Assembly (NCBI RefSeq): GCF_988242995.1
Contig: NZ_OZ547043.1
Strand: one strand, 5' to 3'
DNA: 64,000 nucleotides
Below the pieces are notes generated by a model that saw only the letters and a program-made list of their open reading frames with translations, made no database searches and was not told the origin of the DNA. Positions within the stretch are counted from its first letter, which is position 1; each line of letters opens with the position of its first letter. A program made the translations under genes and the position numbers. Shown here piece by piece: positions 8,307 to 35,737 of the stretch.

Positions 8307-9566
8307 ATGGCGTGGAATCAGCCCGGTAATAACGGACAAGACCGCGACCCGTGGGGAAGCAGCAAACCTGGCGGCAACTCTGAGGGAAATGGAAACAAAG
8401 GCGGTCGCGATCAAGGGCCACCTGATTTAGATGATATCTTCCGCAAGCTGAGCAAAAAGCTTGGTGGTCTGGGCGGCGGTAAAGGCACCGGATCTGGCGG
8501 TGGCAGTTCATCGCAAGGCCCGCGCCCGCAGCTTGGCGGTCGTGTCGTTACCATCGCAGCGGCAGCGATTGTCATTATCTGGGCGGCCAGTGGTTTCTAT
8601 ACCATTAAAGAAGCCGAACGTGGCGTGGTAACACGCTTTGGTAAATTCAGCCATCTGGTTGAGCCGGGTCTGAACTGGAAACCGACGTTTATCGACGAAG
8701 TCAAACCGGTGAACGTGGAAGCCGTGCGTGAACTGGCCGCTTCTGGTGTGATGCTGACGTCGGACGAGAACGTAGTGCGCGTTGAGATGAACGTGCAGTA
8801 CCGCGTCACCAATCCGGAAAAATATCTGTATAGCGTGACCAGCCCGGATGACAGTCTGCGTCAGGCTACCGACAGCGCCCTGCGTGGGGTTATCGGTAAA
8901 TACACCATGGACCGCATTCTGACGGAAGGTCGTACCGTGATTCGTAGCGATACTCAGCGCGAACTGGAAGAGACGATTCGTCCGTATGACATGGGTATCA
9001 CTCTGCTGGACGTCAACTTCCAGGCAGCTCGTCCGCCGGAAGAAGTAAAAGCGGCGTTTGACGATGCGATTGCCGCGCGTGAAAACGAACAGCAATATAT
9101 TCGTGAAGCAGAAGCGTATACCAACGAAGTTCAGCCGCGTGCGAACGGTCAGGCGCAACGTATCCTCGAAGAGGCGCGTGCGTACAAGGCCCAGACCATC
9201 CTGGAAGCTCAGGGTGAAGTGGCGCGCTTTGCTAAACTTCTGCCGGAATATAAAGCCGCGCCGGAAATTACTCGCGAGCGTCTGTATATCGAGACGATGG
9301 AAAAAGTGTTGGGCAACACCCGCAAAGTGCTGGTTAACGACAAAGGTGGCAACCTGATGGTTCTGCCGTTAGACCAGATGCTGAAAGGTGGTAACGCCCC
9401 TGCGGCGAAGAGCGATAACGGTGCCAGCAATCTGCTGCGTCTGCCGCCAGCCTCTTCCTCCACAACCAGTGGAGCAAGCAACACGTCGTCCACCAGTCAG
9501 GGCGATATTATGGACCAACGCCGCGCCAACGCGCAGCGTAACGACTACCAGCGTCAGGGGGAATAA
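8307..9566 (+). CDS. hflK: FtsH modulator HflK (SPFH/band-7)
   Basis: 419-aa ORF; Gly-rich N-terminus, TM segment, SPFH domain. Confidence 0.95.
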   Translation: MAWNQPGNNGQDRDPWGSSKPGGNSEGNGNKGGRDQGPPDLDDIFRKLSKKLGGLGGGKGTGSGGGSSSQGPRPQLGGRVVTIAAAAIVIIWAASGFYTIKEAERGVVTRFGKFSHLVEPGLNWKPTFIDEVKPVNVEAVRELAASGVMLTSDENVVRVEMNVQYRVTNPEKYLYSVTSPDDSLRQATDSALRGVIGKYTMDRILTEGRTVIRSDTQRELEETIRPYDMGITLLDVNFQAARPPEEVKAAFDDAIAARENEQQYIREAEAYTNEVQPRANGQAQRILEEARAYKAQTILEAQGEVARFAKLLPEYKAAPEITRERLYIETMEKVLGNTRKVLVNDKGGNLMVLPLDQMLKGGNAPAAKSDNGASNLLRLPPASSSTTSGASNTSSTSQGDIMDQRRANAQRNDYQRQGE

Positions 9567-32274: not shown

Positions 32275-32736
<462 letters not shown>

Positions 32737-32761
32737 TTCGTTATTCAACGAGACGTAAAAA

Positions 32762-32790
32762 CGCCGACCATTGGTCGGCGTTTTGCTTTC
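32762..32790 (+). terminator. rho-independent terminator after rplI
   Basis: cgccgacc-a-ttggtcggcg hairpin followed by ttttgctttctattttt. Confidence 0.7.
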
Positions 32791-32806
32791 TATTTTTCGT
32801 CAGGTA

Positions 32807-33601
32807 TTAGTTTCGCAAGTAGATCCATTCACCATTCTCCTGTGTCCATAATTCAGGATGGTTTGCTGGCGTTAGATGCATATGATCGCACCTTATGTCT
32901 CGGTCCTGTGGCACTCGTTCGAAACCCAAACCCGAGTAGATTGCTGCTGAACTTGATAAGGAACGCAGACCAATTTTCAAATCATGGGGTAAATCAGAAT
33001 ACGCGTTTAGCAATGCAGCAATGATGAATCCGAGGGCATTAGAAACGCCTGTAACAGTGCGAAGTTGGTCGATATAAAGATCGATTGTTGGTAGTTCAGA
33101 TGACCAGCAATTAGGCATTTGGGCAGGAAGGGTTACAACGTATCCTATCGTTTGGCCGGTATAGTCTGGAGTACCATAACCTGGACCCAAAACAACCTCG
33201 TGTATTGTGTATTTACTGTTGGGTTCGAAGGATTCGACATCTTGCAATAAATATTTCAGTTCTGCGGTTAACCTCGCACCCGCGTAAGCTTTATTGTATT
33301 TCTGGGCGTGAATATTATCTAATGTAGCTTCATGGTTCCATCCAAAAGAATTATCACCATTCATTGTTATTCCATCGTAAGTATTACACCTCGTCGCTAA
33401 CTTATTGAATGCTTGCCAGTCTGAGAGATCTAGTTTGTGGATCTCAACAGTATGTCTGCCATCGCAATTATGGTCTCTTCCACGATTTGAAAGTAATGTA
33501 GCGCGTGCGTATTGATGAAATTTTAATTTTACTGGTTTGTCGGTGGACGAAAAACGGGGTGAATATGCAGGAAATGAATAAATAGTTGTTGGTAATGTCA
33601 T
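32807..33601 (-). CDS. yjfZ: uncharacterised protein YjfZ
   Basis: 264-aa ORF, visibly AT-richer than neighbouring genes. Confidence 0.8.
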   Translation of the reverse strand: MTLPTTIYSFPAYSPRFSSTDKPVKLKFHQYARATLLSNRGRDHNCDGRHTVEIHKLDLSDWQAFNKLATRCNTYDGITMNGDNSFGWNHEATLDNIHAQKYNKAYAGARLTAELKYLLQDVESFEPNSKYTIHEVVLGPGYGTPDYTGQTIGYVVTLPAQMPNCWSSELPTIDLYIDQLRTVTGVSNALGFIIAALLNAYSDLPHDLKIGLRSLSSSAAIYSGLGFERVPQDRDIRCDHMHLTPANHPELWTQENGEWIYLRN

Positions 33602-33824
33602 TTTATTGTTGCCTGTTTAATATTTTTACAAATATCGCAGTTGAATGTTCAAAGAAAAAGAGTTGATATTAATAAAAATAAGTTTGTTTTCTGAAGTGGT
33701 GAAAATAGCGGATAGTAAAAGATATTAATATCAAAAATCGCTCATCACGGATATAACGATGCACCCAGGGAGGGAGATGACTGACAACGCCTTACACCAT
33801 ACATTCTTGTTGTGCGGTATGTAA

Positions 33825-34277
33825 TTATTCTACGCTGTCGGTATCGGTGCGTTCGTTAATCAGCAGGTTAACCAGCCACAAAAAGCCATTGAAAAAATCA
33901 TCGATTTTACCTGGGGTTATTATATTGCTAATCCCTGGTTTTTAAAAATTTTGCATAGTGAAAACCAAAGTAAAGGTGTGCATTATGCAAAATCACAGCG
34001 TCTCTTAGAAATTAATCATGCGCACTTGCGGTTAATGGAATCCTTATTGGATGAAGGGAAGAAACACAATATTTTTAAGGCAGATAGCGACCCATTGCAG
34101 GTGAATATTAATATTGCTGCGCTTGGGGGATATTATTTGATCAACCAGCATACGCTTGGCCTGGTTTATCATATCAGTATGGTTTCACCCCAGGCACTGG
34201 AAGCCAGACGTAAGGTCATCAAAGAGACGCTCCTTAGCTGGCTTCTGGTTGACCCTTCATCTACCGCGCGCGAATAA
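33825..34277 (+). pseudogene. ytfA: TetR-family regulator remnant YtfA lacking the N-terminal HTH domain
   Basis: ORF track gives 33951-34277 (TTG start, 108 aa); frame stays open upstream to the stop at 33822-33824; the 5' bound given here is the first in-frame codon after that stop, not an intact start; a short ATG-led MTDNALHHTFLLCGM* fragment lies just upstream in another frame. Confidence 0.6.
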
Positions 34278-34899
34278 AACTGCCATCCGGCTGACGGGTA
34301 AACAGGACCTGTTGATTATTCCCCGTATCAATGGTTAAGCCCGTCACCACGCCGCTGGCGTTCTGGCGGATTTTCACCATCTGCCCGTTTTGCAAATTAC
34401 TCAGCGGCTTACCCGCGCCTTCTACCTGCGCCATTGCATAGACATCGGTAGCGGGCAGCCCGTGGTCGCGGAACAGCTGTGCCATCGTTTTACCGGGTTC
34501 GACACGGTAAGAGCGCCATTGATTATCAATTCCGCTATCTGGCTGGAATGGTTGCGTTTGGGGGGGTTGCGGCTGCTCTTCTGGCTGGCCTTCCTGTATT
34601 GGTTCTGGAGCGACCGGAGCCACCTGATCAGGATCATTTTGTGGCGTGACTAATTGCGCCCGCAGCTGTTCTTCTGTCGGCGGTTGTGATTGCGACTGAA
34701 TATCTAACTGCGCTTCACGCGTCACCACCGGCGCGTTGGGCGTATCATCAGATGGAAGCAGAAATCCGACCACCAATACAATGGCGGCAATAATGATCCC
34801 CCGACGATGCATCGGCGGCAGCGGGTCCATGAAGCGAAAATTGTCCGGCGCGTGCCAGACTTTCTCCAGGGTTGGTTTTAGTTCAAAGCGCCCGGGCAT
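34261..34899 (-). CDS. ytfB: OapA-domain cell-division protein YtfB
   Basis: ORF 34261-34935; start at [15 protein letters not shown] gives 212 aa; TM segment, Pro/Gln-rich linker, C-terminal OapA/LysM-like domain. Confidence 0.85.
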
Positions 34900-35116
34900 G
34901 GTTTCCTCCTGCTCCGCGTCTTGTTCCTCAATCATAGCCTATGAATAAGCTAACGCTATGATGTCCGTGGTAAACCCGCCTTTATTATATTCATACGGGA
35001 TATTGCTATTGTTTCTTTTTCCCCGGGATTTGTCATCATTCCCGCGACAAAGTTTTACCCAAAGAAGTGTGGCTGATATGCTGCCCGCTACTTTATACCC
35101 TAAGAAAGGAAATACG

Positions 35117-35737
35117 ATGACCACCCCAACTTTTGACACCATCGAAGCGCAAGCAAGCTACGGCATTGGTTTGCAGGTAGGGCAACAACTGAGTGAATCT
35201 GGCCTGGAAGGGCTGCTGCCAGAAGCACTGGTTGCAGGCATTGCTGATGCGCTGGAAGGCAAACATCCGGCTGTTCCGGTTGATGTGGTGCACCGCGCGC
35301 TGCGTGAAATCCACGAACGCGCCGATGCCGTTCGTCGTCAGCGTTTCCAGGCGATGGCTGCTGAAGGTGTGAAATACCTGGAAGAAAACGCCAAAAAAGA
35401 AGGTGTAAATAGCACCGAATCTGGCCTGCAATTCCGCGTGATCAACCAGGGCGAAGGCGCAATTCCGGCACGTACCGACCGCGTTCGTGTTCATTACACC
35501 GGAAAACTGATCGATGGCACCGTGTTTGACAGCTCCGTCGCTCGCGGCGAGCCAGCTGAATTCCCGGTTAACGGCGTGATCCCTGGCTGGATTGAAGCGC
35601 TGACTCTGATGCCGGTAGGTTCTAAATGGGAACTGACTATCCCGCAGGAACTGGCATATGGCGAGCGTGGCGCAGGCGCGTCCATCCCTCCGTTCAGCAC
35701 CCTGGTGTTTGAAGTCGAACTGCTGGAAATCCTCTAA
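35117..35737 (+). CDS. fklB: FKBP-type peptidyl-prolyl cis-trans isomerase FklB
   Basis: ORF 34958-35737; start at ATG 35117 ([12 protein letters not shown]...) gives 206 aa. Confidence 0.93.

Follow-up and report, generated by a model that had tools for sequence, protein, structure and literature searches.

The ytfA frame beside yjfZ in Escherichia coli: a deletion stub of a TetR-family gene lost with its divergent operon

Introduction

Between rplI and ytfB, the E. coli chromosome can carry two divergently oriented genes, yjfZ and ytfA. In the DNA analysed here, a stretch of 64,000 nucleotides (contig NZ_OZ547043.1, assembly GCF_988242995.1; hereafter the window), the initial annotation saw in them a degraded regulator/target pair of foreign origin, in which a TetR-like protein had lost its helix-turn-helix (HTH) and yjfZ might now be constitutively de-repressed or silenced. 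The question raised by this locus is what the ytfA frame is, and whether it ever had anything to do with yjfZ. TetR/tetA, AcrR/acrAB, RutR and BetI are the classical one-target repressors, divergent from the operon that they control. The pseudogene status of ytfA and its variable presence are already recorded: RefSeq gives K-12 ytfA (b4205) as a pseudogene over the interval from codon 83 to the stop (402 bp), and a published survey describes ytfA as a TetR-family gene present in some, not all, E. coli (PMC6790063). What we add is the reconstruction of the alleles, which is further detail and not a new kind of biology. In our reading, held with high confidence, ytfA is the deletion stub of a TetR gene that was lost with its operon, and yjfZ is a separate cassette and not the target of the repressor.

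Results

An AT-rich interval of mixed composition between rplI and ytfB

The window reads, in this part of the E. coli chromosome, rpsF-priB-rpsR-rplI (+), yjfZ (-), the ytfA frame (+), ytfB (-), fklB and cycA. Around the ytfA frame the following features were delimited:

32758..32784, no strand: candidate terminator hairpin with a 12-bp stem (terminator scan and direct sequence reading)
32795..33638, minus strand: yjfZ cassette, 844 bp, made of the CDS with 12 bp downstream and 37 bp upstream and behaving as a one-unit indel
32807..33601, minus strand: yjfZ CDS, 264 aa, DUF2686 (ORF; Pfam E 5e-152)
33639..33765, no strand: segment U, non-coding and AT-rich (29% GC), on the upstream side of yjfZ (local BLAST, GC content)
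34261..34935, minus strand: ytfB, the convergent neighbour of the TetR frame

The hairpin, which is symmetrical and GC-rich with an A-run and a T-run on its sides, lies between the convergent rplI and yjfZ genes and is probably a bidirectional terminator. As the initial annotation had noted, the 264-aa yjfZ gene is AT-richer than the ribosomal operon (41.9% GC, where rpsF-rplI has 51.2% and the whole window 51.8%; of segments of 795 bp, only 3.3% are as AT-rich), and the spacer of about 350 bp that follows is AT-rich too, 349 bp (33602-33950) at 34.7% GC. This spacer is composite, because TetR homology begins only at 33876 and is preceded by the remnant of an SDR gene; it consists, in order, of 37 bp of yjfZ leader, the 127-bp segment U, the SDR remnant of ~80-105 bp and the TetR remnant. 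Segment U is common to every yjfZ-bearing allele and to the yjfZ-less allele of Escherichia sp. E1V33, as determined by local BLAST of L015 (the E1V33 locus), L004 and L009 against the window, and the same method found no similarity between U and the intact operon described below. U probably carries the yjfZ promoter. An Rfam search found no RNA family in the spacer, and a repeat search returned nothing relevant. In K-12 the yjfZ/ytfA spacer binds RpoD holoenzyme in vitro, at a site that faces ytfA, and carries an H-NS flag (PMC3946193); silencing of the AT-rich yjfZ region by H-NS would be compatible with that flag. At the other end of the interval, the last 17 bp of ytfB overlap the 3' end of the TetR frame, an arrangement also present in the intact alleles.

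The ytfA frame keeps the ligand-binding domain and has no HTH

Within and beside the frame we distinguished four elements:

33766..33871, minus strand: 5' remnant of an SDR ('3-ketoacyl-ACP reductase') gene, approximately codons 30-64 (80-82% identity to intact SDR genes)
33777..33824, plus strand: 15-codon ATG ORF with TAA, a chance ORF across the deletion junction (direct sequence reading)
33876..34277, plus strand: ytfA pseudogene, TetR/AcrR codons 83-215 and stop (Pfam, alignment to the intact allele)
33951..34277, plus strand: traditional ytfA ORF with a TTG start, 108 aa (ORF list, allele comparison)

The frame is open from 33825, right after the TAA at 33822-33824, and its translation from that point matches positions 1-118 of the 119 of the Pfam profile TetR_C_29 (E 1.3e-27), so that the whole ligand-binding/dimerisation domain is retained. 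The HTH profile TetR_N had no Pfam match in the frame 33825-34274, and no HTH-encoding segment was present upstream of 33876 in the translated frames, which excludes a full-length in-frame HTH for the window. The description of ytfA as only the C-terminal part of a TetR-like protein, in a frame open from 33825 and listed with a TTG start at 33951, is thus correct, and the hidden upstream HTH that could have overturned it was not found in the window. All the close full-length homologues of ytfA do have this domain.

The 108-aa ORF is without the first 25 residues of the TetR_C_29 domain, and its TTG start is a Val-to-Leu change in KIVHS, where other alleles, including that of K-12, have GTG (Val). 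The 15-codon ATG ORF (33777-33821) had been assigned to another frame; it is in the frame of ytfA (33825-33777 = 48), and it sits on the junction of yjfZ-upstream DNA and the SDR remnant. We rejected it as a TetR N-terminus: the intact proteins start with MYLDTSNVQSL, which is unrelated. Since TetR homology starts at 33876 and the SDR-like stretch reaches 33871, the segment 33825-33875 is antisense SDR stub and not TetR. The SDR remnant is 80-82% identical to the SDR genes of four loci (L004, L005, L006 and L008). In the window haplotype its left 28 bp (33766-33793) match instead the DNA found after U in operon-bearing alleles, which leaves 33794-33871 as the unambiguous SDR remnant; the corresponding piece of E1V33 covers SDR residues 30-61 by tblastn. 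In a strain 99.5% identical to the window, PGAP labels the TetR remnant as 'missing N-terminus'.

Intact alleles pair the TetR gene with a six-gene operon

At rplI-ytfB the intact allele carries a gene for a 215-aa TetR/AcrR protein divergent from an operon of six genes. The full unit is present in E. coli S1-CAM-01-A, 2014EL-1346-6, HS, 536 and BL21, and lies between rplI and ytfB also in E. whittamii, K. spallanzanii and Entomohabitans; in E. albertii it adjoins ytfB, on a contig that ends before rplI. The operon encodes, in order, an SDR ('3-ketoacyl-ACP reductase'), a xylose-isomerase-like TIM barrel protein, an enoyl-CoA hydratase, a fused family-I CoA-transferase, a 690-aa FAD-binding oxidoreductase of the fumarate-reductase/aspartate-oxidase type and an MFS transporter of the galactonate (organic anion) type, the last being replaced in HS-type strains by three TRAP-transporter genes. 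These products predict a catabolic, CoA-dependent organic-acid pathway with an organic-acid transporter; for its substrate, NCBIfam, PDB and literature searches returned generic names only. In K. spallanzanii the operon proteins are 78-92% identical to those of E. coli (TetR 89%) compared to 61% for YtfB, a gap that hints at horizontal movement of the unit.

The intact TetR (WP_001318432 / WP_001299246 in BL21, HS, 536, E. whittamii and E. albertii) is orthologous to the remnants and occupies the same chromosomal position, its C-terminal 133 residues being 93-100% identical to them. In Pfam it shows the TetR_N HTH at residues 19-61 and TetR_C_29 at residues 83-201. The 212-bp control region between the TetR gene and the operon contains a palindrome, GATCAACCATCTGGTTGGTTG, that is invariant across seven taxa despite diverged surroundings, and this palindrome (GATCAACCATCTGGTTGGTTGAT) is the candidate operator of the 215-aa protein. 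By the divergent arrangement, the six-gene operon is the obvious target of the intact TetR, which, judging from the gene order and the phylogenetic footprint, would repress it through the conserved palindrome. The intact allele would in this respect be like TetR/tetA, AcrR/acrAB, RutR and BetI: its repressor is small and has two domains, the operon runs divergently, and the control region common to both holds a palindrome; unlike those systems, its repression and its operator are predictions from sequence. HTH, control region with palindrome and operon are all missing from the window, whose copy cannot bind DNA.

Two deleted segments separate the window from the intact allele

Alignment of the window to an intact allele at rplI-ytfB mapped the junctions. 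Homology to the yjfZ-upstream DNA ends at 33793 (...GACAACGCCTT), and the TetR gene resumes at 33876 with residue 83; the junction 33875/33876 falls between codons 82 and 83. The alignment to intact homologues that had been proposed to place the truncation therefore locates a deletion and not a frameshift. Two segments are missing. The larger, of ~7.3 kb, begins at about SDR codon 63 and extends past the end of the operon's transporter gene; the smaller, of 545 bp, takes in SDR codons 1 to ~29, the control region of 212 bp and TetR codons 1-82. Each junction coincides with a short imperfect homology, which is ACGC[C/G]TT for the left one and CCGCCAC for the right one. The right-hand junction is common to all the sampled remnants, including that of E1V33, down to a derived base (CCAGCCAC compared to CC[C/G]GCCAC). 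On the left, the crossovers of the window type and of the K-12 type are at different points inside ~30 bp of imperfect similarity, so that a single clean deletion history is not established.

In the history that we propose, an intact TetR-operon unit would have suffered a deletion of ~7.3 kb, which took away the operon beyond about SDR codon 63, transporter gene included, and a second one of 545 bp, taking the SDR 5' end, the divergent 212-bp control region and TetR codons 1-82, with an SDR stub of ~80-105 bp surviving between both. What is called ytfA would be the orphaned 3' two-thirds of a repressor gene, left without a DNA-binding domain, native promoter and operator, ATG or anything to regulate, and drifting under relaxed constraint. 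The number and order of these deletions are what we infer from the junctions. Strain TUM2820, considered as an intermediate with only the control-region deletion, was rejected, as it carries a different TetR allele.

The locus and overall architecture of K-12 ytfA (b4205, NC_000913.3) are those of the window, and the right-hand junction is the same. The two differ in haplotype: their identity is ~96-97% overall and falls to 91% across the junction, the crossover points within the left imperfect repeat are not the same, and the window remnant carries five further amino-acid replacements, among them the one that makes the TTG start out of the K-12 GTG (Val).

The deletion allele and the operon coexist in E. 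coli

We searched 5426 complete E. coli genomes by megablast with window positions 32700-34400. The region is colinear with the window, that is, has the deletion allele, in 2227 of them, K-12 included, and the junction itself is colinear in 2226. In the genomes that are not colinear the match breaks at 33793 and resumes at 33875; operon DNA was present in 3180 of the 5426. At least two haplotypes carry the deletion junction. That of the window is the minority one (~516 genomes at 95% identity or more), and the majority one is of the K-12/O157 type (1684 genomes at 90-95% identity). The pair of SDR and TetR stubs was also found in Escherichia sp. E1V33, whose flanks are ~94.5% identical to the window (~5.5% divergent) compared to 97-98% for E. 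coli strains.

Among complete genomes, then, loss (~41%) stands beside retention (~59%), the retained form having interchangeable MFS and TRAP versions of uptake. This polymorphism may be common to E. coli and to a sister lineage with ~5.5% divergent flanking DNA.

yjfZ is a separate, maintained cassette

YjfZ matches DUF2686 (PF10887) nearly over its full length (profile positions 17-285 of 285) with 505 bits compared to a gathering score of 25; the family is one without known function or structure. Over 13.3 kb the E1V33 locus (L015) aligns colinearly to the window with ~94.5% identity, minus exactly 32795-33638. yjfZ was found in 2538 of the 5426 genomes. Because the five alleles compared are all intact, with a pN/pS of ~0.2, yjfZ is maintained and not decaying. 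A word-indexed protein search and a full HMMER scan of 1.84 billion representatives both returned, for YjfZ, only relatives from Escherichia and fragments; the most distant homologue is an E. albertii protein with 40-43% identity. There was no match in PDB sequences, PHROGs or PADLOC, and an AlphaFold2 model built from a 3-sequence alignment had a pLDDT of 37.6, too low for use. A match to a secreted repeat protein of 3635 aa was discarded as a likely compositional artefact, and the resemblance of the C-terminal half to an acetyltransferase motif, a loose impression, was dropped. YahL and YdjO, which one paper reportedly names alongside YjfZ, were compared and are not homologous.

All four presence/absence combinations of yjfZ and the TetR/operon unit exist. 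The operon without yjfZ is found in BL21, HS, 536 and E. whittamii, and in 536 a hipBA-like module occupies the place of yjfZ; the operon with yjfZ is found in S1-CAM-01-A and, by subtraction, in ~300 genomes; the remnant with yjfZ in the window and K-12; and the remnant without yjfZ in Escherichia sp. E1V33. Where both are present, the intact TetR gene is 7.5-8 kb from yjfZ, which in operon-bearing alleles lies downstream of the transporter gene, past an apparent terminator hairpin seen by eye. A search of the whole window for the palindrome conserved in intact control regions gave no match, even when 3 mismatches were tolerated, and the region upstream of yjfZ has no copy of this putative operator. 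As yjfZ occurs with or without the operon or remnant, is kept by purifying selection and lacks the palindrome, it is not the target of the repressor; it was the deletion that brought ytfA and yjfZ next to each other. The regulator/target pair of the initial annotation thus keeps its decayed TetR regulator and loses yjfZ as the target, and there is no basis for a de-repressed yjfZ. Foreign origin fares similarly: it is not shown for the TetR/operon unit and it is plausible for the yjfZ cassette, which is AT-rich, restricted to Escherichia and delimited by clean indel boundaries. The cassette would have inserted beside the rplI terminator, separately from the TetR-operon unit and with its own upstream DNA.

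The TetR remnant is decaying

A further feature marks the state of the remnant in other strains:

34170, no strand: IS609 insertion site (break at this position in six strains; empty in the window)

The stub is interrupted at 34170, in six strains, by IS609, which belongs to the IS200/IS605 family and carries tnpA and tnpB, and a rough count from match rankings places this element inside the remnant in roughly three quarters of the deletion alleles. Between the window and its nearest relative, the remnant shows 6 non-synonymous and 2 synonymous changes, a ratio of 0.79, compared to a pN/pS of ~0.1 for intact pairs. The private changes of ten remnant alleles, small counts, are 10 non-synonymous, one of them nonsense, to 5 synonymous, and one remnant allele carries an indel. 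The frame is open for 133 codons in the window, K-12 and E1V33, pN/pS between deep remnant haplotypes is low (0.15-0.27), and the amino-acid sequence of the K-12 remnant is identical to the intact HS protein. The ytfA remnant is a pseudogene under relaxed constraint, with the qualification that the counts are small and that comparisons between haplotypes still look constrained.

We attribute the low between-haplotype pN/pS and the identity of K-12 to HS to recombination with intact alleles. Such recombination, across the ytfB/TetR-C flank, would refresh the TetR stub and could not reach the SDR stub. The SDR stub differs from intact genes by 18-20% and the adjacent TetR remnant by 1.5-4.5%, a gap that fits this idea without proving it.

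Discussion

The reading advanced above has to be set against other accounts of the same frame. One makes ytfA a repressor dedicated to yjfZ, the genes having arrived together as a pair of foreign origin in which HTH loss leaves yjfZ constitutively de-repressed; that they are adjacent, divergent and both AT-rich suggests it. We regard it as highly improbable: every intact allele has its TetR gene divergent from the SDR-led operon, yjfZ being 7.5-8 kb away or absent altogether, all four combinations of the two exist, the palindrome of the real control region is unmatched in the window, and the adjacency was made by the deletion itself. A second account takes the remnant as a functional, HTH-less TetR C-domain, started at the TTG/GTG at 33951 or at a non-canonical codon upstream and acting as a ligand sponge or as a dominant-negative partner. 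A frame that stays open across deep haplotypes with low pN/pS between them, and the RpoD-holoenzyme site that faces ytfA in the K-12 spacer (PMC3946193), speak for it. It is nevertheless very unlikely, given that IS609 interrupts the frame in roughly three quarters of the deletion alleles, that one allele has a nonsense codon and another an indel, and that private changes are mostly non-synonymous (6N:2S between the window and its nearest relative). Moreover, the 108-aa ORF begins 25 residues inside the domain, a consensus scan found no promoter-like site on the + strand upstream of 33951, and the HTH is present in all the close full-length homologues. Faulty sequencing or assembly, through a frameshift or a collapsed region, could in principle hide an intact regulator. 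The probability of this is negligible: 2226 complete genomes, assembled independently, are colinear over the same junction, and the 545 bp and the 7.3 kb are simply absent.

A further account, less improbable than these though improbable still, reverses the history: the deletion allele would be the older one in the E. coli lineage, and the alleles with both yjfZ and the operon would have re-acquired the operon by recombination. It finds support in the remnant without yjfZ in the divergent lineage E1V33, the resemblance of the 30 bp on the right of U to the SDR stub in the allele with yjfZ and operon, and the greater identity of the K. spallanzanii operon proteins, relative to YtfB, to those of E. 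coli. On the contrary, the fact that three genera have the intact unit syntenic between rplI and ytfB favours its ancestral presence, and because a stub can derive only from an intact gene, the intact state has to be the older one overall. The order of events cannot be read from the data, since homologous recombination in the flanks can shuffle yjfZ and the operon independently. Under the reading that we prefer, the deletion stub, a long-standing K-12 'y-gene' turns out to be the scar of a deletion, and the notion of ytfA as a regulator of yjfZ is corrected.

K-12 and the strain of the window are thus without an accessory catabolic operon that ~59% of the sequenced E. coli carry, and that apparently nobody has characterised. 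Loss and retention of the pathway might represent an old polymorphism kept by selection, with the ytfA stub as a marker of adaptive loss instead of random decay; we offer this as a speculation with some, but limited, likelihood. If true, the operon, absent from K-12, would be an unstudied determinant of the E. coli niche. yjfZ, for its part, emerges as a conserved, selected and genus-restricted gene of the DUF2686 family. It was reportedly proposed earlier as a PCR marker for E. coli as a whole, yet only ~47% of the complete genomes have it.

The operon between rplI and ytfB and its transporter

In genomes carrying the intact unit, a TetR gene divergent from a six-gene operon, the distal end of the operon is occupied either by one MFS transporter gene (L004 20931-22208) or by a three-gene TRAP transporter (L006 1395-4239), while the five-enzyme part is otherwise conserved. 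Among the 5426 complete E. coli genomes, the MFS-type query was covered over at least 80% of its length in 1661, and about 1500 others gave the 79% coverage that corresponds to the TRAP type. The difference is an uptake module exchanged within a single operon. E. coli TUM2820 appears to have had its regulator replaced: a different TetR gene, of 211 aa (L093 10290-10925), is paired with the MFS-type operon. The control region of this locus is longer, and its MFS gene contains an internal stop.

The unit in other genera

The TetR gene and the MFS-type operon also lie between rplI and ytfB in Klebsiella spallanzanii (L014) and Entomohabitans teleogrylli (L016). Compared with E. coli, the operon proteins of K. 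spallanzanii are 78-92% identical and its TetR 89%, whereas the flanking YtfB is only 61% identical; in Entomohabitans the operon proteins are 76-88% identical and YtfB 58%. Salmonella and Citrobacter were absent from the hits. The pattern suggests that the unit was exchanged horizontally into a conserved site, or else that rates are very uneven.

The deletion junction and IS609

L004 is the allele that has yjfZ as well as the operon. The 30 bp on the right-hand side of its segment U (the AT-rich stretch upstream of yjfZ) resemble the site in the SDR gene where the deletion ends:

L004 (reverse complement) 1185-1218 versus 8521-8548; window 33766-33793: left-junction similarity

Stubs of the window type and of the K-12 type differ in the point at which this similarity is resolved. 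Such a pattern could reflect either repeated deletion at a single hotspot or earlier recombination of stub-bearing with intact alleles.

Roughly three quarters of the deletion alleles, among them both window-type and K-12/O157-type haplotypes, have the TetR stub interrupted at window position 34170, the same site each time, by IS609 (L003 7472-9218; L094, L096-L099), an IS200/IS605-family element containing tnpA and tnpB/InsQ. The site is empty in the window and in K-12. Precise excision is possible for elements of this family, so the absence of IS609 there could be either the ancestral or a secondary state.

The rplI-proximal end and flanking annotation

In E. coli 536, the sole B2 strain examined, an HTH gene and a frameshifted HipA-family toxin gene (L008 640-2403) occupy the place of yjfZ, indicating that the rplI-proximal end of the interval gathers varied cargo. 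yjfZ (window 32807-33601) was put forward as a "conserved signature" for PCR, a marker said to occur in all E. coli and Shigella (PMC11057252); only 2538 of the 5426 complete E. coli genomes were found to contain the gene. Only 23 bp separate its stop codon from a symmetrical hairpin:

32758-32784: AAAACGCCGACC...GGTCGGCGTTTT, between the convergent rplI and yjfZ

This hairpin looks like a shared bidirectional terminator of both genes.

On the naming of fklB, recent PGAP annotations call the orthologue "bamJ, BamJ family beta-barrel-assembly machinery protein" (L089, L093), and other records still call it "FKBP-type peptidyl-prolyl isomerase":

about 35114-35737: fklB ORF, orthologous to L089 11624-12244 and L093 11795 onwards
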